Assembly (NCBI GenBank): GCA_963523795.1
Contig: CAURER010000006.1
Location: forward strand, 218-64,217
Length of the DNA stretch: 64,000 bases
Source: an uncultured Granulicatella sp.
GTDB lineage: Bacteria > Bacillota > Bacilli > Lactobacillales > Aerococcaceae
Direction: 5' to 3'
The notes beneath the pieces were generated by a model. It was not told the DNA's origin, did not search any database, and saw only the letters and a list, made by a program, of their open reading frames with translations. Numbering within the stretch: position 1 is the stretch's first letter; every line of letters begins with the position of its first letter. A program made the position numbers and the translations under genes. This document shows positions 2,997 to 50,148 of this stretch, one piece after another.

Positions 2997-4493
2997 CTAC
3001 AACTGTTCGTTTGAACGATCATATAATTCTGTAATCTCTAATAGGAAATCTTCCACTTCTTGTGTAATATCTCCTTCTTGCATTCTCCACACCCAATTTC
3101 CACCAAGAGTGCTTGGAATATTCATACGAGCTGTTGTATCCAATTGTAATAAATCTTGCATCGTTGCAATAGTCATCTTACTTACAGAACCATATAAACT
3201 TCTTAATAATGCGTAACTAATTGGCTCATCTGTACGATTTAAATAACGATTACAGAAATCACGTTCTTCATCTGTTGCAGATTCATACCAGCCTAAAACT
3301 GTATCATTATCATGCGTTCCCGTATAAGAAACAGAGTTTACCGGATAATAATGTGGTAAATCTGTGCTACTTGGTTCTGCTCCCATAAATCCAAATTCTA
3401 AAATTTTCATTCCTGGGAATCCTGTCGCTTCACGCAATTCAATAACCGCATCATCCATAAATCCTAAATCCTCGGCGATAATTGGTAAATCTCCAAGTTC
3501 ATTTTTCACTGCTTCAAATAAGTCAAAACCTGGACCTTTTACCCATTCACCACCAGTAGCATCTGTTGCACCTGCTGGAATTTCCCAGTAAGCTGCAAAT
3601 CCTCGGAAGTGGTCAATTCTAACTACATCAAACAATTCAAAGCTTGCTTTCAATCGTTTAATCCACCAAGTAAAGCCATCTAATTTCATCGTTCTCCAAT
3701 TATAAATTGGATTTCCCCATAATTGTCCTAATGGTGAGAAACTATCTGGTGGACATCCCGCTACACAAGCCGCATTACCAACTTCATCTGTTTTGAAGTA
3801 GTGAGGTGTTGCCCACATTTCAACGCTGTCTTCTGCAACATAAATTGGCATATCTCCAATAATTTGGATATGGTGTTCATTCGCATATTTTTTCAAGGCT
3901 TTCCATTGTTTATCAAATAAATATTGAGTGACACGATGATATTCTAATTTATCCGCTAATTTTTCACGGTAGTTTGCTAAAGCTTCTGGATGACGACGTT
4001 TGATTTCTTCATCCGTCCAATTAGTCCAACTCTTCATATCGAAGCTTTCTTTAATCGCCATATATTCTGCAAATGGTTCTAACCACTCTGCTTTTTCTTC
4101 CACAAAACGATGGTAATCCGTTAAATCTTCTTTTTCTAAGAAACGTTGAACGACTTTTTCTAAAATAGGTCTTCTCTTTTCATAAATTAAAGCATAATCA
4201 ACAGTTGTAGAATCTTCTCCCCAATTACCTGTTAATTCTTCTTCATTTAATAAACCTTCCTGAACAAATAGATCTAAATCTAAAAAATGTGTATTTCCAG
4301 CAAATGCTGAAAAAGATTGATATGGAGAATCTCCATAACTTGTTGTTCCTAATGGAAGAATTTGCCAATAAGTTTGTTTGCTACGTACTAAAAAATCTAC
4401 AAAATCATAAGCAGATTTTCCAAATGAACCAATTCCATATTTCCCCGGCAAAGAAGAAATATGCATTAACACACCAGATTGTCTTTCTTTCAT
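2997..4493 (-). CDS. malQ: 4-alpha-glucanotransferase (amylomaltase), GH77
   Basis: 498 aa. SGVLMHISSLPGKYGIG start, then VRIDHFRGF, IAEDLG and TGTHDNDT motifs of GH77. Confidence 0.93.
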   Translation of the reverse strand: MKERQSGVLMHISSLPGKYGIGSFGKSAYDFVDFLVRSKQTYWQILPLGTTSYGDSPYQSFSAFAGNTHFLDLDLFVQEGLLNEEELTGNWGEDSTTVDYALIYEKRRPILEKVVQRFLEKEDLTDYHRFVEEKAEWLEPFAEYMAIKESFDMKSWTNWTDEEIKRRHPEALANYREKLADKLEYHRVTQYLFDKQWKALKKYANEHHIQIIGDMPIYVAEDSVEMWATPHYFKTDEVGNAACVAGCPPDSFSPLGQLWGNPIYNWRTMKLDGFTWWIKRLKASFELFDVVRIDHFRGFAAYWEIPAGATDATGGEWVKGPGFDLFEAVKNELGDLPIIAEDLGFMDDAVIELREATGFPGMKILEFGFMGAEPSSTDLPHYYPVNSVSYTGTHDNDTVLGWYESATDEERDFCNRYLNRTDEPISYALLRSLYGSVSKMTIATMQDLLQLDTTARMNIPSTLGGNWVWRMQEGDITQEVEDFLLEITELYDRSNEQL

Positions 4494-4550
4494 AAAAATA
4501 TTACCCTCTTTTCTTTATCCATCTAATTGGGTACGTAAATTCAAAACTTA

Positions 4551-4563
4551 CGCAACCGTTTGC
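4551..4563. promoter_or_regulatory. LacI/MalR-type palindromic operator (CGCAACCGTTTGC) at the malQ-glgP promoter
   Basis: 10/12 palindrome GCAACCGTTTGC centred on CG. It lies just downstream (minus sense) of the minus-strand promoter TTGCTT-17-TAGTAT (comp. 4568-4596). Confidence 0.6.
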
Positions 4564-4567
4564 TTTA

Positions 4568-4596
4568 ATACTATTAGAAAAAAAATAAAAAAGCAA
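4568..4596 (-). promoter_or_regulatory. Sigma-A type promoter for malQ-glgP
   Basis: Minus strand: TTGCTT (comp. 4591-4596), 17-nt spacer, TAGTAT (comp. 4568-4573). Confidence 0.55.
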
Positions 4597-4707
4597 GTAA
4601 AATTTCAAATTTTTATAAAAACATTTTTTAAAAGAAAACGCTTATAATACCGACTTTTTACCTATTAATAAATATAGCTTTATAAATAAACAAAATACCG
4701 TTTAAAA

Positions 4708-7163: not shown

Positions 7164-8038
7164 TGAAAAACCAAAAACTCGGCTTGTTACTTTTAGAAAT
7201 TTTTGGAGCTGTTTTATTCTTATTATTCTTAAGCCCAATCTTTTTATTAGTGATTAACTCAGCTAAAAGTTCTGCCGAAATCTTGGCTAGCCCATTATCA
7301 TGGCCTGCAAGTTTCGGTCAACTATGGACAAATGCGGTAACAATTTGGAATAATCCTTCCATTAAATACCCATCATCATTTTTTGCTTCAACAATTATTA
7401 CAGTGATTTCATTAGTAACGATTACATTATTCTCAGCATTAGCTGCTTGGGGATTAGTTCGTTACCGTTCTAAACTATCAACTGTTGTATTCTTTATCTT
7501 TGTAGCATCAATGGTAATTCCTTTCCAAGTTGTAATGTATCCATTAGTAACTTGGTTCAAAATTTTAAGTGATACAATTACAAATCCTTTATTCGGATTT
7601 AGCTTATTACGTACTTATCCTGGTATCATCTTTGCTTACACTGGATTTGGAATGTCTCTATCTGTATTCATGTTCCACGGCTTCATTAAAGGTGTTCCAC
7701 TTGAAATCGAAGAAGCAGCTGAATTAGATGGATGTAATAAAATGCAAACATTCTTCTATGTTGTATTACCAATTTTAAAACCAATCTATGTAACAATTTT
7801 AATCTTAAATGGTATTTGGATTTGGAACGACTTCTTATTACCACTATTATTATTAGGTAAAGGAAATGCGATTCAAACACTTCCAATCGCAGTATCTAAC
7901 TTTGCAGGATCATTTACAAAACAATGGGATATGATTTTAACATCAACTCTATTAATTATGTTACCAGTCATCATCCTATTCTTAATTGCTCAAAAACATA
8001 TCATGAAAGGTATGGTTGATGGAGCTATCAAATCTTAA
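7163..8038 (+). CDS. Sugar ABC transporter permease (MalG-like)
   Basis: 291 aa, EAA loop EEAAELDGCNKMQTFFYVVLPI. ATG overlaps the upstream stop (TAATG), consistent with translational coupling. Confidence 0.9.
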   Translation: MKNQKLGLLLLEIFGAVLFLLFLSPIFLLVINSAKSSAEILASPLSWPASFGQLWTNAVTIWNNPSIKYPSSFFASTIITVISLVTITLFSALAAWGLVRYRSKLSTVVFFIFVASMVIPFQVVMYPLVTWFKILSDTITNPLFGFSLLRTYPGIIFAYTGFGMSLSVFMFHGFIKGVPLEIEEAAELDGCNKMQTFFYVVLPILKPIYVTILILNGIWIWNDFLLPLLLLGKGNAIQTLPIAVSNFAGSFTKQWDMILTSTLLIMLPVIILFLIAQKHIMKGMVDGAIKS

Positions 8039-11382: not shown

Positions 11383-12738
11383 TTAAATCACTCGTTCTAA
11401 TACAGCTACTGTTTCAATCGCTGTCGTCATTGGGAACATATCTACTGGCTGAGCATACAGCGCCTGATAACCTTCTTCTTGGAATAAAGCTAAGTCACGT
11501 GCTAATGTTGCTGGATTACAGCTAACGTACACAATTTTTCTAGCTTTTGTTTTAACGGCTGCCTCGATAAATGCTCCATCTAATCCTTTTCTTGGTGGAT
11601 CGACTACAATCACATCCGGTTGTAATCCTGAGTCTACCCATGTCGGCATGACTTTTTCAGCTGCTCCCACTTCAAATGTTACATTGTCAATCTTATTCAA
11701 TCGAGCATTTTCCTTCGCCATTTGAATGGCATCCGGTACAATTTCCATGGCATAAACTTTTTTAACACGTTTGGCAAAAGCTAAACTCATTGTTCCAATT
11801 CCACAATAAGCATCCACTACTATTTCATCCCCAGTTAACTCAGCTGCCTGAATTGCTTCACGATACAACACTTCCGTTTGAATGGTATTAACTTGGAAAA
11901 ATGAACGTGAACTAATGGTAAAATTAAATTCCATTAATGCTTCTTGGAAAGCATCTTCTCCAAATAATACTTTCTTTTGAGAACCCATAATAACATTTGA
12001 TTGATGAGGTTGAATATTTTGAACAATTGACACTACTTCTGGTAATTGCTGAGTAATTTGCTCTACAACTGCCTCTTTTTGAACAAACTTCTCTGTACGA
12101 GTGACTAAAATAATCATCACTTGAGAAGTGCGCAATCCTCTACGTACAATTATATGACGTAAATCGCCAGTATGTTTTTCTTCATCATAAGCTTCAATTG
12201 CATATTTTCGTAAAATATCTCTAACAACTAAAATAATACGATCAATTTCTGGATCTTGAATATGAAAATCTTCGATTGGAACTAAGTCGTGTGAATTTTT
12301 CTTGAAAAAGCCAGTCGTTAATAAGCCATCTACCATTCTTACAGGGATTTGTGCTTTATTCCGATATCCAAATGGATGTTCCATTCCAATCGTTGGACGA
12401 ACTTCTAACTCTGGTATTTTCGCAATTGTATTCATGACATGTTTCACTTGTTTTTGTTTGAAGGCTAATTGAGCTTCATATTTCATATGTTGTAAAGGCA
12501 TTGTTCCCACTCGAGTTCCATTTGGATCAACTAATGGAATACGGTCAGGACTCGTCGATACCCATTCGACAACTTTGGCATAGCCAAATTTTTTCCCAAT
12601 TTTTAAAACATGCGCCACTACTTTTTCTCCAGGCAGCGCATTTTCAATAAAAAGAGGAAATCCATCGACTTTTGCAACACCCATTCCTTCATACGTTAAA
12701 TCATCAATTTGTACTTCTATACGATCATTTTTTTTCAT
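11383..12738 (-). CDS. rlmD: 23S rRNA (uracil-C5)-methyltransferase RlmD/RumA family (TRAM + SAM MTase)
   Basis: Start reset to ATG 12738 (SD GAGGA 5 nt upstream); the track starts at a GTG 12 nt earlier. N-terminal TRAM domain, AYCGIGT SAM motif, C-terminal VSCNPATLARD. Confidence 0.88.
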   Translation of the reverse strand: MKKNDRIEVQIDDLTYEGMGVAKVDGFPLFIENALPGEKVVAHVLKIGKKFGYAKVVEWVSTSPDRIPLVDPNGTRVGTMPLQHMKYEAQLAFKQKQVKHVMNTIAKIPELEVRPTIGMEHPFGYRNKAQIPVRMVDGLLTTGFFKKNSHDLVPIEDFHIQDPEIDRIILVVRDILRKYAIEAYDEEKHTGDLRHIIVRRGLRTSQVMIILVTRTEKFVQKEAVVEQITQQLPEVVSIVQNIQPHQSNVIMGSQKKVLFGEDAFQEALMEFNFTISSRSFFQVNTIQTEVLYREAIQAAELTGDEIVVDAYCGIGTMSLAFAKRVKKVYAMEIVPDAIQMAKENARLNKIDNVTFEVGAAEKVMPTWVDSGLQPDVIVVDPPRKGLDGAFIEAAVKTKARKIVYVSCNPATLARDLALFQEEGYQALYAQPVDMFPMTTAIETVAVLERVI

Positions 12739-12821
12739 CTCAATCCTCACTCACTACTATTTATCTGACTTATTATATCTTATTTTTATATAATTTTATA
12801 GTGAAGTATGAAATTCAAACT

Positions 12822-12857
12822 AAAAAAAGGTATTTTGACTGACCCGCCAAAATACCT
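12822..12857 (-). terminator. Intrinsic terminator of the ABC-2 exporter operon
   Basis: AGGTATTTTG (12828-12837) pairs with CAAAATACCT (12848-12857). A seven-A run on plus (12822-12828) gives the U-tail on the minus strand. Confidence 0.8.
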
Positions 12858-12897
12858 AATTCGTAACTCTCTCTCATTATATCCTTTCCACAAGAAC

Positions 12898-12976
12898 AGA
12901 CTTTCCACTGTAGTATTATCATGCATGAGATTCGCTCGCAAAGCTGCTGCCGTCCTTTACTACAGTGCAAAAGTCT
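12898..12976 (-). repeat. Long imperfect inverted repeat (18/19-nt arms, approx. 42-nt GC-rich loop) in the 3' region of the ABC-2 operon
   Basis: AGACTTTCCACTGTAGTA (12898-12915) versus TACTACAGTGCAAAAGTCT (12958-12976). Located between the permease stop (12987) and the terminator (12857). Confidence 0.6.
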
Positions 12977-12986
12977 ATTTCATATT

Positions 12987-13715
12987 TTACACAGCTTTTC
13001 TTGTCAGTTTCGCTAAAAAGAGTTCTTTTCGTGTTGGATTTAATACAATTAAGTTTACTAAGAATAAGCCTACTAACCAAGCTAATGCTACACCAATTGT
13101 TTCAAAGCTTAATTCAAAACTTTCTTTAGTAAAGAAGTCTACATAAACTCCCATAAATGTATAATGAGCAATTTTTGAAGCAGTCTCACTTAATCCAGAG
13201 AACAATGGTAAGAATGAAATAGCCATCATAGGTACTAAACCATTCACTTGCGCTTGTGATTGAGTATTAGAAAGAGAAGCAATTAATAAGTTTAATAAAA
13301 TAACACATAATGCCACAACAATCGCTACTACAAAATATTCTCCTGAATGTTTTCCAAAGTCTGCATCTACAATCATTGGAAAACTTACAATCGTTACTAG
13401 TCCAATAATAACTGGATAAAATAGTGCAGATAATAAATATTCTCCATTTCTAACACCACTGAGTAATAAAGATTTCAAGTTTTTCTTTTCCTTATCTTCA
13501 GCAATTGTTAAAGAAGTTAAACTTCCTAGTGAGACTGAGAAGGCTAATGATAAACACATAAATACCATATATGAAGAATGTAGTCCATCCTTATTCATAA
13601 ATTGGTTATATAAGATTAACATTCCATACGGTAATAAAATCGTTGCTAATAAAGTGCTATTACTTAATAATACTTGTGTGCGTAGCCAAATTAAGGCAGA
13701 TAATCGTTTAATCAT
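12987..13715 (-). CDS. ABC-2 type transporter permease
   Basis: 242 aa, 6 TM. Overlaps the upstream ATPase gene by 8 nt. Confidence 0.8.
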   Translation of the reverse strand: MIKRLSALIWLRTQVLLSNSTLLATILLPYGMLILYNQFMNKDGLHSSYMVFMCLSLAFSVSLGSLTSLTIAEDKEKKNLKSLLLSGVRNGEYLLSALFYPVIIGLVTIVSFPMIVDADFGKHSGEYFVVAIVVALCVILLNLLIASLSNTQSQAQVNGLVPMMAISFLPLFSGLSETASKIAHYTFMGVYVDFFTKESFELSFETIGVALAWLVGLFLVNLIVLNPTRKELFLAKLTRKAV

Positions 13716-38644: not shown

Positions 38645-38742
38645 TGCAGCGAATGCGAATACACTACCGCAAAGAATTCTCTTTTTCGTCCAATCGGCAA
38701 CATCCCATCCGTTTGGCACTTAACGCAATGTATTCTACTCTG
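38645..38742 (-). promoter_or_regulatory. THF (tetrahydrofolate) riboswitch
   Basis: Minus strand: CAGAGUAGAAUACAUUGCGUUAAGUGCCAAACGGAUGGGAUGUUGCCGAUUGGACGAAAAAGAGAAUUCUUUGCGGUAGUGUAUUCGCAUUCGCUG. It shares the conserved blocks GAGUAG, GCGUUAAGUG, AUGGGAUGU, ACGAA, GCGGU and CGCAUUCGCU with the folT-motif consensus. Downstream, CUCUUU can pair with the SD AAAGGAG. Confidence 0.85.
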
Positions 38743-38895
38743 ATTTGTTTTGGCTTGTCTCTTAAATTGACAAAACCTTTTCCATGCACTCCTTTCTACC
38801 AGAAAATAGCATACCTGTTTTTATATCTGTCGTCAATGAAACTGATACTTCCCTCCATTCAAACTTCTACAATCAATCATTTTTTCTAAAGGGAA

Positions 38896-44196: not shown

Positions 44197-44222
44197 AAAC
44201 ACAAGTAAAAATGTCCCATGTA
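44197..44222 (+). repeat. 26-nt repeat, copy 1 (AAACACAAGTAAAAATGTCCCATGTA)
   Basis: Direct repeat with 44521-44546 (25/26 identical). The first 21 nt are identical to the reverse complement of 47458-47478. Confidence 0.9.
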
Positions 44223-44310
44223 TACCATGGAATAAAGCAAAAGGAGATGATATAATCATTAATGCTGAAGCCAAACCTTCCGCAAGTCTATGCGAAAGGA
44301 GGTGGAGCAA

Positions 44311-44403
44311 GTGCACTACATTTTCGACGTCTTACTTGCTATTGTGGCAGAAGTAACAGCACATTACATTTGCAAGTGGTTAGATAGCAAGGACAAAGGC
44401 TAA
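44311..44403 (+). CDS. Type I toxin, Fst/PepA1-like small hydrophobic peptide (30 aa)
   Basis: GTG start 6 nt after SD AGGAGGTG. Peptide is (M)HYIFDVLLAIVAEVTAHYICKWLDSKDKG: a hydrophobic helix followed by a W-L-D-x-K-D-K charged tail, as in Fst/PepA1. An in-frame ATG at 44290 would add 7 charged residues. Confidence 0.75.
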   Translation: MHYIFDVLLAIVAEVTAHYICKWLDSKDKG

Positions 44404-44420
44404 AGCTAACCCATCACCGA

Positions 44421-44488
44421 CAAAAAAGCCCCTAGGGAACTGACATTTCCTTAGGGGCTTCGGTGTGCTTGCGCACTACATTTTCGTA
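44421..44488 (-). ncRNA. Antitoxin RNA (RNA II-like) of the type I TA locus
   Basis: Minus-strand promoter TTGACA (comp. 44517-44522), 17 nt, TACAAT (comp. 44494-44499) with a TG extension. The 5' region CGAAAAUGUAGUGC (comp. 44473-44486) is complementary to the toxin start-codon region 44313-44326. Ends at the shared hairpin 44426-44460 plus U6. Confidence 0.7.
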
Positions 44489-44520: not shown

Positions 44521-44546
44521 AAACACAAGTAAAAATATCCCATGTA
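44521..44546 (+). repeat. 26-nt repeat, copy 2 (AAACACAAGTAAAAATATCCCATGTA)
   Basis: One mismatch to copy 1. Overlaps the -35 of the RNA II promoter on the opposite strand. Confidence 0.9.
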
Positions 44547-44795
44547 ATGTTACAATAAATTCATTCTAATATTATGGAGGAGTATCTAAACATGAATGAA
44601 AACTTAAATACGAAGTCATTCTTTTTGTTACTCTTCCTTTTTCGGAATCATACTTCGTTAATATCCCATTATTCTTACAACGTGAGAAAATACGTTTTAG
44701 CATTTTTTACCCGTCTTCGATTGAAAATCACTTTACATTCTGACAAGCTTTCGCTATGATGGTATAGGTTTAAATAAACACCATAGGAGGATTTT

Positions 44796-46795: not shown

Positions 46796-47326
46796 TCACA
46801 ATGACTCCATCCAAGGTTTATGAATAGAGACATGATTCATTAATTCTTCTTGTCGTTTCAATTGTTCTAATCGAGCTAAACGTCGCTCTTCATAACCACT
46901 ACAAATAAATTTTTCTTCTGCAGTTTCTGGTTCGATCGCTGGAACTGCAAAATCTGTTTCCCCTTCACGAGGTAAAGCTACAAATGTCCAAAAACTAGTT
47001 GCCGCCAAATAACGTTCACCTGTTAAAACATCTTCTCCTACCACTTTACAAAAGACTTCCATACTTTTCTTTCCAACACCAGAAATATACGTTTCCACAC
47101 AAACAGAATGTCCTAATGGTAATGGTTTTAAGTAGTTCATCGCATCAACGGAAGCTGTCACTGCTAAACGACGACAATGACGAGATACTGTAATTGATGC
47201 ACAATCATCAATAATACGTGTTAAGTTCCCTCCAAATAATGTTTGATGCATATTCACATCAAATGGGAAAATTCTTCTAGATTGAATCGCACGTGTTTGT
47301 GCACATGTTTTGATTGTTGTATTCAT
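46796..47326 (-). CDS. Acyl-CoA thioesterase (hotdog fold, YciA/BFIT-like)
   Basis: Start reset to ATG 47326 (SD AGAGGAG). NMHQTLFGGNLTRIIDDCASI...VTASVDAMNYLKPLPLG. Confidence 0.82.
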   Translation of the reverse strand: MNTTIKTCAQTRAIQSRRIFPFDVNMHQTLFGGNLTRIIDDCASITVSRHCRRLAVTASVDAMNYLKPLPLGHSVCVETYISGVGKKSMEVFCKVVGEDVLTGERYLAATSFWTFVALPREGETDFAVPAIEPETAEEKFICSGYEERRLARLEQLKRQEELMNHVSIHKPWMESL

Positions 47327-47457
47327 ACTAACTCCTCTAATGTTCAATAACGTTATTGTACCATTCCTTTTCTTTTTTTCAAAAAGTATGGCTTTGAGAT
47401 AATAGTTCCTTTTTTTAATTTCTCATCACTCTACAAAATTAGAATAAATATTATTCG

Positions 47458-47478
47458 GGACATTTTTACTTGTGTTTA
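47458..47478 (-). repeat. Repeat copy 3, inverted (GGGACATTTTTACTTGTGTTT)
   Basis: Exact reverse complement of 44197-44217. Confidence 0.9.
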
Positions 47479-47543
47479 ATTAGGACATAATCACTTGGGT
47501 TGGCGAAGTTTGCAATTCATTTTGTTTTTGGTATAATGAAGAT

Positions 47544-47665
47544 ACAAAAAGAGCCAAGCTCCAACTCGACTCTGATGTAGACCGTTGAAAAGACGGTAGC
47601 TGAATTACGATATTATAAAATAACACCGCTAACTCTGCCAAAGTTATGAGCGGTATTATTTTTTC
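47544..47665 (+). ncRNA. Candidate orphan sRNA (approx. 120 nt), class unknown
   Basis: Promoter TTGCAA (47510-47515), 16 nt, TG-extended TATAAT (47532-47537). No ORF on either strand. ACCGU/ACGGU hairpin. Terminator ACCGCU/AGCGGU with flanking pairs (47619-47657) plus a T-run at 47658-47665. Confidence 0.5.
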
Positions 47666-47718
47666 GTTAGTAATTCTATTACTTTGACAATCATGGATTT
47701 TACAAGTACAATATAAAC

Positions 47719-47908
47719 AAATTAAAAATTACTTGTGGGCTAGTGGATATGGTCTGCACCCGCCTGTGGGCTCATCAATCAATTTAACTATTTGATGAGA
47801 AAAAAAATAACAGGACTGCCTACCCTTGAGGAATAGATAGGGCATATCTAGCGTGAGGTGAAACTCAATACGTGGAAGAGAAGGGTGCAGATGCGCCCTT
47901 CTTTTTTT
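47719..47908 (+). ncRNA. Structured approx. 190-nt RNA/leader ending in an intrinsic terminator, upstream of the orphan 211-aa ORF
   Basis: Promoter TTGACA (47684-47689), 17 nt, TACAAT (47707-47712). Hairpins at 47771-47778/47792-47799 and 47834-47839/47845-47850. Terminator stem 47880-47888/47893-47901 plus T7. UCUGCACCC (47753-47761) is exactly complementary to the 5' terminator arm GGGUGCAGA (47883-47891). Confidence 0.55.
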
Positions 47909-47929
47909 ATATTTTAGGAGAAGATTCAA

Positions 47930-48565
47930 ATGACATATACTTTGGAATGGATTAAAAATTTTAATGGAAATATCAATATTCATAACGTTAATATGTCTTG
48001 CTTAGCCAATGTGATTGAGACATATGTTTCACAGTACAAGTATGTTTATCTAACAAATATGATAGACTATCCTGAAATAATTCTCTCTGTTCCTAACTCG
48101 TCCATTCCTCATCTATTAGGATTATCAAGAGAACATCATGTGAATTTACCATCAAATAATGCAGGAAGCATTTTTGAAGGTTTAAAAGATGATTGGACAC
48201 TAGAACGTTTGCAAAAAGCGGATAATGGGTGGTTTAATGAAAACAAGTTCAAAATTATTGGAACTCTATTACTTTACCAAATGTTGCATTTAATCCAATG
48301 TAAATTCTACACAACAAATAATATTTTAAACAAAGAAGTTGGCAAACGATTTAGAAGAGATAATATTTATTTTGTAGTTTTCAAATTAAATAACGAGATA
48401 AGTTATACCGTTGAATTATCACGTGAGCAAGGAAATCTTTACTTCCCAAGAAGTCTTAAAATCAATGATAACTCTATCAAAAATTGTAAGGAAATAAAAT
48501 TACAACTCGTTGACAAGAAACGTTTCAAACCTACGAAAGCAAGAAAAGTTAACTGGTCTTCTTAA
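47930..48565 (+). CDS. Orphan basic 211-aa protein, no family recognised (candidate toxin/effector)
   Basis: SD AGGAG 9 nt before the ATG. AT-rich coding sequence. Lys/Arg-rich C-terminus. The SIPHLLGLSREHH segment faintly recalls phage BECR-fold nuclease (PBECR) motifs, an impression only. Confidence 0.6.
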   Translation: MTYTLEWIKNFNGNINIHNVNMSCLANVIETYVSQYKYVYLTNMIDYPEIILSVPNSSIPHLLGLSREHHVNLPSNNAGSIFEGLKDDWTLERLQKADNGWFNENKFKIIGTLLLYQMLHLIQCKFYTTNNILNKEVGKRFRRDNIYFVVFKLNNEISYTVELSREQGNLYFPRSLKINDNSIKNCKEIKLQLVDKKRFKPTKARKVNWSS

Positions 48566-48715
48566 AAAAATATTAGAAAAAAACTACTTCCATTTCTTCC
48601 ACATATTACATCTACCACTGACCAACACGCGGGTTATAAACGATCGAGTTATAACCTTTAGTCCTTCGCATAATTGCGGGGGATTTTTTTACAAACCACA
48701 ACAAATCCCTCACCA

Positions 48716-48744
48716 CAAAAAAGAGAGCAACTCTCGTTACTCTC
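48716..48744 (-). terminator. Intrinsic terminator after glmM
   Basis: Minus-strand GAGAGUAAC-GAGA-GUUGCUCUC (one G-U pair), then U6. Confidence 0.8.
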
Positions 48745-48762
48745 CCTTTCAAACTTCAATTC

Positions 48763-50118
48763 TTAATCTAATCCAATCTCTTGACGAACGACATCTGCGA
48801 TACGTGTTACATAATCATGACATAATTCATCTGTTGGTGCTTCTACCATGACACGTACTAATGGTTCCGTTCCACTTGGACGAACTAGAACACGACCATT
48901 TCCTGCCATTTCAGCTTCTACTGTGTCGATAATTTCTTTAATCGCTGGGACTTCCATTGCTCCGTTTTTATCGCTCACTCGAATATTCACTAATTCTTGA
49001 GGATAAGTTGGCACTTCGCTAGCTAATTCGCTTAATTTCTTACCTGTTTGTTTCATAACATTCATCAATTGAATTCCTGATAACAATCCATCACCTGTTG
49101 TATTTAAATCTAAGAATACAATATGTCCTGATTGTTCTCCACCGAAGTTATAGCCATTTTTACGCATTTCTTCTACAACATAGCGATCTCCTACCGCTGT
49201 TTGAAGAGCAATCATTCCTTCTTCTTCAACTGCTTTATGGAATCCTAAGTTACTCATAACTGTTGAAACAATGGTATCTTGGTTTAATTGACCTACACTG
49301 CGTAAATATTTTCCACAGATGAACATAATTTTATCGCCATCCACGATTTCACCATTTTCATCAACTGCAATACAGCGGTCTCCATCTCCATCAAAACTTA
49401 AACCTAAATCTGCGCCATTTTCTTTTACAAATTCCGCTAAAGCTTCTGGATGTGTTGAACCCACTCCATCATTAATATTTACACCATTTGGTTTATTTCC
49501 CATTGTGTAAAATTCTGTTTCTAAATCTGCAAATAAACGATTTAATACTGAAGCAGTTGCTCCATTTGCCCCATCTAATGCTACTTTCATATCTGTTAGA
49601 GGGCCATCAATTGTATGTTGCAAGAATTGACTATACTTCATAGTTCCTTCTAAATAAACATCTACTGTTCCTAATTCATCTGTTGAAGGACGTGGTAATG
49701 TATCTTCTGGACTATCTAATAAAGCTTCAATTTCTGCTTCGGTCTCATCAGATAATTTAAAACCATCTGATCCAAAGAATTTAATTCCGTTATCTTGTGC
49801 TGGATTATGAGATGCAGAAATCATAACCCCTGCTACTGCTCCTTGCACTCGTGTTAAATAAGAAACTCCTGGTGTTGGAATAACTCCTAATTGCATGACT
49901 TCAATTCCGACTGATAATAAACCTGCAATTAACGCATGCTCTAATAATTGTCCTGAAATACGAGTATCTCTTCCGACTAAAACACGGGGATGCTTATCTC
50001 CGCCTGCTTGTTGTAATAAGACATAGCCACCAAAACGTCCTAATTTAAATGCTAATTCTGGTGTTAATTCTGAATTTGCTACTCCTCTTACACCATCTGT
50101 TCCAAAATATTTGCCCAT
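48763..50118 (-). CDS. glmM: Phosphoglucosamine mutase
   Basis: Start reset to ATG 50118 (SD GGAGA). [15 protein letters not shown] start, and the active-site [16 protein letters not shown]. Confidence 0.95.
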
Positions 50119-50148
50119 ATTCAATCTCCTTTAAAATTCTATCATTTT

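Follow-up and report, generated by a model that had tools for sequence, protein, structure and literature searches.

In a 64,000-nucleotide stretch of contig CAURER010000006.1 from an uncultured Granulicatella sp. (the window), the spacer that separates a thioesterase-like gene (46796-47347) from glmM (48763-50124), both on the minus strand, carries a structured RNA that has its own promoter and terminator and precedes a single open reading frame (ORF) of 211 aa. This locus raises the question whether RNA and protein constitute one functional system and, if so, of which kind. An earlier sequence-only reading had proposed an undescribed RNA-protein cassette with the layout of type III toxin-antitoxin or abortive-infection (Abi) systems, and had counted among its parts a repeat, an orphan small RNA (sRNA) unit, the promoter, RNA and terminator, the ORF, and several hairpins. 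All of these elements were found in place, in a region that is indeed AT-rich (G+C of 27-34% across the cassette region versus 35-40% in the flanks), but only some of them turned out to belong together.

This paper describes the segment 47684-48565 as a self-contained, mobile two-part module of approximately 0.9 kb. The proposed arrangement of promoter, RNA, terminator and ORF was confirmed and recurs in other loci, and the joint recurrence of RNA and ORF in dozens of unrelated contexts indicates a pairing far above chance. By analogy with known systems, the module is interpreted, with a probability of roughly 55%, as a type III-like toxin-antitoxin or abortive-infection system in which the RNA would restrain an RNase.

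Anatomy of the module

The features of the module and its surroundings are collected in Table 1. Transcription from the sigma-70-type promoter, whose -35 and -10 boxes are kept across the Streptococcus, Gemella, Granulicatella and Enterococcus loci (alignment A2), would start at approximately 47720. The RNA is approximately 190 nt long including the terminator and comprises a pseudoknotted unit of approximately 150 nt; a single-sequence fold of the promoter/terminator RNA had a z-score of -3.4, and the pairing of the terminator stem is maintained by compensatory changes in other loci. As had been supposed, the ORF is without a promoter of its own: a promoter scan of 47907-47930 was empty, and because the Shine-Dalgarno sequence directly abuts the U-run of the terminator, there is no space for a separate one. 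Transcription of the ORF thus appears to be reachable only via read-through of the terminator. The order of promoter, RNA, terminator and toxin-type gene is the general layout of type III toxin-antitoxin loci. Tandem Repeats Finder detected no arrays in 47400-48800 and a separate repeat comparison revealed no internal direct repeats, in agreement with the earlier remark that the RNA is not a tandem-repeat array.

Homology to a second Granulicatella genome (L009) and to Streptococcus loci begins at the -35 box (47684) and extends as far as the stop codon (48571). The locus L001, from the same species as the window, encodes a protein 99% identical to that of the window behind a leader that is 100% identical.

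Table 1. Positions of the module, its RNA helices and neighbouring elements in the window.
Feature	Position	Strand	Remarks
Sigma-70-type promoter TTGACA-17-TACAAT	47684-47712	+	Promoter scan; 11/12 consensus matches
Conserved structured RNA, core	47731-47877	+	Covariance model R1, 149.5 bits, full length
Helix S1	47734-47740 / 47752-47758	+	7-bp hairpin, 11-nt loop
Pseudoknot	47746-47750 / 47844-47848	+	S1 loop with segment after S4
Helix S2	47763-47767 / 47810-47814	+	Encloses S3
Helix S3	47771-47775 / 47795-47799	+	Variable hairpin
Helix S4	47823-47826 / 47839-47842	+	
Helix S5	47852-47857 / 47864-47872	+	Followed by the terminator
Intrinsic terminator closing the RNA	47874-47911	+	15-bp stem (47874-47907) and U-run
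Shine-Dalgarno sequence AGGAG	47916-47920	+	9 nt 5' of the ATG; abuts terminator U-run; kept in alignment A2
211-aa ORF, PBECR4-type predicted endoribonuclease	47930-48565	+	SSIPHLLGLSREHH segment; basic C-terminal tail KKRFKPTKARKVNWSS
21-nt word GGGACATTTTTACTTGTGTTT	47457-47477		Perfect inverted copy of 44197-44217; neighbour, outside the module
RatA-like orphan sRNA	47534-47622	+	Rfam RatA 46.3 bits (E 6e-5), gathering 49; own promoter-like site 47509-47537; neighbour, outside the module
AT-rich hairpin GGTTATAA/TTATAACC (48641-48668) and intrinsic terminator (48660-48685)	48641-48690	+	After the ORF; locus-specific 3' end, outside the conserved module

Structure and conservation of the RNA

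The five predicted helices and the pseudoknot are backed by covariation. Among 22 diverse sequences, 98.4% of the cells are paired and double changes, on both sides, occur in 24 of the 33 pairs, values that are biased in favour of the nested helices, which were present in the model used for the alignment. None of 500 shuffles attained the observed covariation values, and pairing fell to only 32-48% when the partners were slid by 1-3 columns. The pseudoknot, which was absent from the model, covaries in five sequences, where GAUAU/AUAUC is replaced by ACUAAC/GUUAGU, GGCUAAC/GUUAGUC or other pairs.

Conservation of the RNA exceeds that of the protein. Over Streptococcus and Gemella the leader is 84-90% identical and the proteins are 73-82% identical, and the leader is still recognisable where protein identity has dropped to 43-50%; in the locus L038 the RNA has 70.7% nt identity versus 43% aa identity for the protein, and in L115 these values are 54.5% and 32%. 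The RNA thus appears to be under stronger constraint than the protein. A leader peptide, encoded by a 12-codon ORF from the ATG at 47749, was considered and ruled out, as most homologs have ATA at this position.

With the window leader as query, Rfam 15 returned only sub-threshold matches to unrelated families at E<=10, the best of which covers the terminator hairpin, and the RNA of nine other loci had no match to any family of this release; none of its curated models of known riboswitch and leader classes recognised the RNA. The RNA family appears undescribed, and to this extent the claimed novelty of the cassette stood; it did not hold for the protein, which has a Pfam family (PF18813) and probably also a name, Hesat.

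Coupling of the RNA to the ORF

Coupling was assessed from both sides. In a protein-first test, covariance model R1 was run on 50 protein-selected loci and detected a single RNA, on the strand of the ORF and 45-60 nt 5' of it, in 44 of these; in the remaining six, three ORFs lie at contig edges, one locus is a deletion derivative, and two are frameshifted pseudogenes. As the cassette proposal had anticipated for homologous loci, a structured RNA precedes every intact family member that has upstream DNA (44/44), and Abi or MazEF genes are neighbours in some of them. Even the most distant relatives, with 32-43% protein identity, keep the RNA at 75-91 bits. In an RNA-first test, a 24-nt pattern scan of metagenomes yielded 57 loci, 52 of which have the ORF downstream, while two end before downstream sequence is available and three contain the RNA only. 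In PLSDB, the RNA query and the protein query retrieved the same 15 plasmids (15/15).

RNA-less copies with available upstream sequence number three, and all of these have a disabled ORF. In Streptococcus sp. Marseille-Q5986 (L029, 3990-4020), a clean deletion that starts in the promoter spacer, at a ACAAATATG microhomology, has fused the -35 box and spacer to codon 41, with loss of the -10 box, the RNA, the terminator, the Shine-Dalgarno sequence and 40 codons; the resulting type of 171-aa remnant forms a cluster of 28 member sequences. The copies of S. mitis (L033) and S. oralis subsp. tigurinus (L034), both at 4001-4635, are pseudogenes with several frameshifts and unrelated upstream DNA that contains no RNA. 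The opposite pattern, an intact RNA with a truncated ORF, occurs in several loci, of which L070 and L077 were checked individually. Moreover, a 71-kb metagenomic contig (L103, 2169-2345) contains an orphan RNA (142 bits) that has a terminator-like hairpin of its own and lacks an ORF, located between CBS-domain-like and RNase J-like genes (both named by eye from their translations). Overall, the coupling of RNA and ORF is strict.

The encoded protein family

Searches with the window protein against Pfam (E<=10), PADLOC, NCBIfam and PHROGs gave nothing usable, and a PDB sequence search returned nothing. The absence of Pfam and PADLOC matches is in line with the previous statement that the protein does not look like ToxN/AbiQ, and the faint resemblance to BECR-fold nucleases that had been perceived in it was borne out by its relatives. 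Pfam PBECR4 (PF18813) is matched by 11 of 28 aligned relatives, and four of nine individually scanned ones (P0062, P0077, P0073 and P0065) exceed the gathering score of 27 bits, with 28.5-32.7 bits over nearly the whole domain; P0062 is 50% identical to the window protein. Through transitive homology only, the window protein is thus placed as a predicted divergent member of PBECR4, a family of BECR-fold RNases.

PBECR domains are predicted to be RNases of the colicin-D type that need no metal, and the BECR active-site pattern consists of a histidine in the N-terminal core helix together with a C-terminal Ser/Thr (PMC5512222). Invariant residues of the family include H61 (in IPHLLGLS), H69, H70, R143, D144, E162, and R198; as candidates for this pattern, H61 is part of helix 58-62, and S164 and S175 are almost invariant. 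The AlphaFold2 model of the window protein had a pLDDT of 94.7 and a pTM of 0.91, and a Foldseek comparison with BFVD gave one borderline, unnamed match (A0A097BYD4, E 2e-3, TM 0.45).

Homologs clustered at 90% amounted to 77 clusters with the single sequence and 103 clusters with a profile as query; an exhaustive search of 1.84 billion representatives yielded 61 clusters at 50% identity, and 38 loci were found among 185,579 species genomes. The hosts comprise Streptococcus, Granulicatella, Gemella, Enterococcus, Lactobacillaceae, Lactococcus, Listeria, and Clostridia. Polyvalent proteins of phages and conjugative elements, together with solo phage proteins, are where PBECR domains have mainly been described (Iyer et al. 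2017, PMC5512222), whereas the subfamily of the window is solo, host- or plasmid-borne, always located 3' of the RNA, and without a copy in GenBank phages.

The exhaustive search also retrieved approximately fifteen solo second-tier relatives of about 200 aa with 60-98 bits. In addition, three giant proteins, P0168 (4201 aa), P0177 (2241 aa), and P0187 (1217 aa), each had 8-14 weak matches to the family profile; at a guess, these could be polyvalent proteins in which PBECR-like domains are repeated.

Genomic context of the module

The module is tied to mobile elements and defence genes, and its distribution is patchy. It is located at the edge of a conjugative element (ICE) in the S. mitis group, adjoins AbiEi/AbiEii in S. 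varani, has AbiEii and an 'abortive infection protein' in its vicinity on pLG50, adjoins MazEF on the 10-kb plasmid pCBA3605-3, and adjoins ArdC/SSB genes in Listeria. In metagenomic loci it is accompanied by integrase, resolvase or Mrr genes, and in Lactobacillus and Apilactobacillus it stands alone amid housekeeping genes. The plasmid pCBA3605-3 (L113) additionally contains a Bacillus-plasmid RNA motif at 7655-7715 (RF01691, 69.9 bits).

RNA copies on phage-like contigs

Two metagenomic contigs carry the RNA within tRNA arrays. In L056 (array region 12396-13155, RNA at 12908-13035) it is positioned just 3' of tRNA-Trp, within a gap of approximately 610 nt before tRNA-Asn, and in L091 (2223-2707) it follows tRNA-Trp in an array of 11 tRNAs. 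Both copies are on the strand of the tRNAs, score 143-146 bits, and have neither a terminator nor an ORF. Further genes on the L056 contig are those for a tail fibre, an RNA ligase (phrog_548) and an endolysin that shares 80% identity with the one of Weissella phage WCP_01. The RNA of the kimchi plasmid pCBA3605-3 (Lactobacillus sp. CBA3605) is 93.8% identical to the L056 copy and 92.2% identical to the L091 copy. Folding of the phage inter-tRNA region gave no significant structure signal. Approximately 70 further nt are common to the L056 and L091 contigs (CCTTAACTAGCTAGGCATTACAT...CCACGGTAACTCGTGG).

Relation to Hesat

In a screen of 198 candidates from 321 lactococcal plasmids, Grafakou et al. 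(2024) identified Hesat (pUCCL620_156; BioProject PRJNA1086404), a single-gene system of 213 aa that has no HHpred or InterPro domain, has a colicin-D-like fold, and confers experimentally validated Abi-like phage resistance; its cloning required native upstream signals and a low-copy vector, and homologs were reported in Lactococcus, S. thermophilus and S. varani, with seven copies in the UCC collection (PMC11381338). A 2026 review gives the mechanism of Hesat as unknown and mentions no RNA (PMC13064643), and a study of escape mutants does not include Hesat (PMC12184496).

The protein family of the window is very probably Hesat, the match being one of size, fold, host range and plasmid collection. 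Both are proteins of about 212-213 aa with no recognised domain, a colicin-D-like fold, lactococcal plasmid origin, and S. thermophilus and S. varani homologs, which are indeed found among the homologs of the window protein. A 212-aa family member (WP_032398646.1) is encoded on five dairy plasmids of the UCC collection (pUCCL630C, pUCCL637D, pUCCL642B, pLL303C and pLLDRC3A), and the 103 clusters of the family compare with 111 HMMER matches for Hesat (PMC11381338). The window copy differs from Hesat in being chromosomal, in Granulicatella, and approximately 46% identical to the lactococcal protein, and Hesat was described as a single-gene system, with no RNA mentioned in PMC11381338. Should the two be the same, the Abi-like function that had been suggested for the cassette would agree with a validated phenotype; this part of the suggestion holds only on that identity. 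The RNA would then be the candidate missing second component of Hesat, offer a concrete mechanism for a validated defence system, and explain its need for the native upstream region and a low-copy vector.

Relation to known RNA-antitoxin systems

ToxIN, CptIN and TenpIN, as well as AbiQ/antiQ, likewise consist of a promoter, a non-coding RNA, an intrinsic terminator and an endoribonuclease gene, are borne by plasmids and mobile elements, and have a role in abortive infection. The module differs from these in both components, as the window protein has no Pfam, PADLOC or NCBIfam match that would place it in the ToxN/AbiQ fold, and its RNA is one pseudoknotted unit of approximately 150 nt where the ToxI-type antitoxins have tandem repeats of approximately 36 nt.

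AbiD1/AbiF with the abiF-motif RNA (RCd22 in C. difficile) similarly combines a structured, single-copy RNA with a downstream RNase toxin. RCd22 acts in cis as well as in trans and binds the AbiF protein (bioRxiv 10.1101/2025.04.15.648962), and AbiD1/AbiF leaders contain a promoter-plus-terminator upstream segment that is required for function (PMC11381338). The AbiF protein has a HEPN/Abi_2 fold as opposed to the BECR fold predicted here, and neither the Abi_2 domain (Pfam) nor the abiF motif (Rfam) was detected in the module. AvcID also has a non-repeat sRNA antitoxin upstream of a non-ToxN toxin and is activated when phage shuts off transcription (PMC10511110), but its toxin is a dCTP/dCMP deaminase and its RNA is unrelated. 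The kind of system, an RNA with an RNase toxin and an Abi role, is thus already known, and for the protein family there is a catalogue entry, PBECR4, and probably a name, Hesat. The novelty appears to lie in the RNA family, in its being universally coupled to this protein family, and in its occurrence within phage tRNA arrays.

Interpretation of the module

In the preferred interpretation as a type III-like system, a single promoter would produce the RNA, which mostly stops at the terminator, and occasional read-through would produce the mRNA of the RNase. The RNA, in excess, would bind and restrain the RNase as an antitoxin. Upon infection or loss of the module, the supply of RNA would stop or the RNA would be degraded, and the freed RNase could cut cellular or phage RNA. 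The likeliest target would be tRNA, a suggestion that comes only from the analogy with colicin D and from a phage contig on which the RNA occurs together with a tRNA array and an RNA ligase. Translation would then stop, by which infection is aborted or a plasmid stabilised, and some phages might counter this by an RNA copy of their own in the tRNA array. Such copies recall pseudo-ToxI, by which a phage mimics an RNA antitoxin (PMC3475682).

Several points weigh against this interpretation. Co-occurrence and co-loss are equally expected if the RNA is merely the only promoter and leader of the gene, and the probability is held at the value given above because a purely cis-acting leader would yield the same co-occurrence. 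Unlike the ToxI repeats, the RNA occurs as one copy in which long stretches are invariant, and it could point to sensing of a ligand or factor. On the side of the protein, Pfam misses the window sequence, a Foldseek comparison of the AlphaFold2 model with the PDB, proposed earlier as a check, gave no significant match (best E 0.49), and the identification with Hesat draws on the features named above. The phage evidence consists of two related metagenomic contigs; in IMG/VR, a 17-nt RNA pattern had five matches, all by chance (no flanking similarity), and two longer patterns had zero, and GenBank phages contain no copy of the RNA.

The alternative that survives best, although it is rather unlikely, takes the RNA for a cis-acting leader, an attenuator or sensor that keeps the RNase off by termination or by occlusion of translation until a phage product or another signal binds. 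A precedent in which such control was demonstrated is phage Orf1 with the lactococcal abiD1 leader (PMC2661086). The position of the terminator immediately 5' of the Shine-Dalgarno sequence without a separate promoter, the invariable location of the RNA before the same gene on the same strand, and highly conserved unpaired stretches that resemble a binding pocket would all suit a leader of this type, and since a decoy RNA from a phage might titrate a phage trigger as well, the phage copies are compatible with it. However, the orphan copies lack an expression platform (L056 and L091) or a downstream gene (L103), and the RNA matches no known riboswitch class. Nor was a conserved antiterminator found: a candidate, CTGCACCC at 47753-47760 pairing with the terminator arm (GGGTGCAG), was ruled out, as Streptococcus terminators differ in sequence and this complementarity is absent from them.

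It is improbable that the RNA is instead a positive cofactor, i.e., a scaffold, specificity element or sensor of an active ribonucleoprotein that is needed for defence. Its universal coupling, a conservation higher than that of the protein, and a pseudoknotted multi-helix fold seemingly more elaborate than an inhibitor needs are consistent with this role, as is the finding that Hesat was functional when cloned with its native upstream signals (PMC11381338). For a phage, however, an activator of a host nuclease would be of no benefit (L056, L091), the RNA has no variable guide-like segment except the S3 hairpin, which covaries as a stem, and the occurrence of RNA with a decayed ORF but not of an intact ORF without RNA is an asymmetry that suits an antidote better. 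A cofactor role therefore fits the phage copies and the pattern of loss less well than does an RNA that restrains the RNase.

A further reading, in which the ORF would be an ordinary accessory gene whose 5' untranslated region is long and conserved, with no toxin or defence role in its host and with the RatA-like sRNA and repeats as unrelated debris of a variable spacer, is very improbable: no phenotype is recorded for the Granulicatella copy, several copies stand alone amid housekeeping genes, and the flanking sRNA and repeat are truly unrelated to the module, but the predicted PBECR4 nuclease fold, in which histidine, arginine and glutamate residues are invariant, the patchy distribution tied to mobile elements and plasmids, the neighbouring defence genes, the Abi-like phenotype of Hesat (PMC11381338), and the RNA copies on phage contigs all argue otherwise.

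If the module is indeed a type III-like system, a BECR toxin fold and a single pseudoknotted RNA unit would join the short list of RNA-antitoxin systems, and a phage that carries the antidote RNA inside a tRNA array would be a natural example of a new counter-defence route. More specifically, and only tentatively, we propose that Hesat-type defence is a two-component, new type III family of a BECR RNase with a single-copy pseudoknotted RNA antidote, and that this RNA has been captured by Lactobacillaceae phages into tRNA arrays, from which tRNA-processing enzymes would release it as an anti-defence decoy. As a genomic marker of this small family, the RNA is also sharper than the protein, which escapes Pfam and PADLOC.

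Neighbouring elements in the window

The repeat, the RatA-like sRNA and the 3' hairpins, which the sequence-only reading had included in the cassette, are common only to loci of the same species (L001 and L080), and because of this restriction they are regarded as neighbours and not as parts of the module; the DNA downstream of the ORF matches L001 only. At the junction equal to window position 47397/47458, L001 (1581-2370) and L080 carry an extra insert of approximately 790 bp that encodes a RelB/DinJ-like and ParE/RelE-like pair of type II (named by eye from the translations), which suggests that the spacer between the thioesterase gene and glmM is a hotspot for toxin-antitoxin-type cassettes.

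The RatA-like unit is possibly a type I toxin-antitoxin unit in an orphan or decayed state. On its opposite strand, a promoter (47641-47612) and a terminator (47573-47550) could give rise to an antisense RNA of approximately 65 nt. The unit (47509-47665) contains no toxin ORF, and the sole overlapping minus-strand ORF (53 aa, TTG start) is by eye unlike TxpA; with a RatA score below gathering and no convergent hydrophobic toxin ORF, it does not qualify as a TxpA/RatA system.

The region of the GGGACATTTTTACTTGTGTTT word is, in addition, 84% complementary over 31 nt to 44521-44551. The segments 44197-44222 and 44521-44546 are 26-nt direct repeats around a match to SpF66_sRNA at 44272-44469 (45 bits, gathering 42), so that the repeat word, present at these two sites and inverted at 47457-47477, is placed as if it marked the borders of cassettes. 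Elsewhere in the window, a tetrahydrofolate (THF) riboswitch was detected at 38645-38744 on the minus strand, with 88 bits versus a gathering score of 36.

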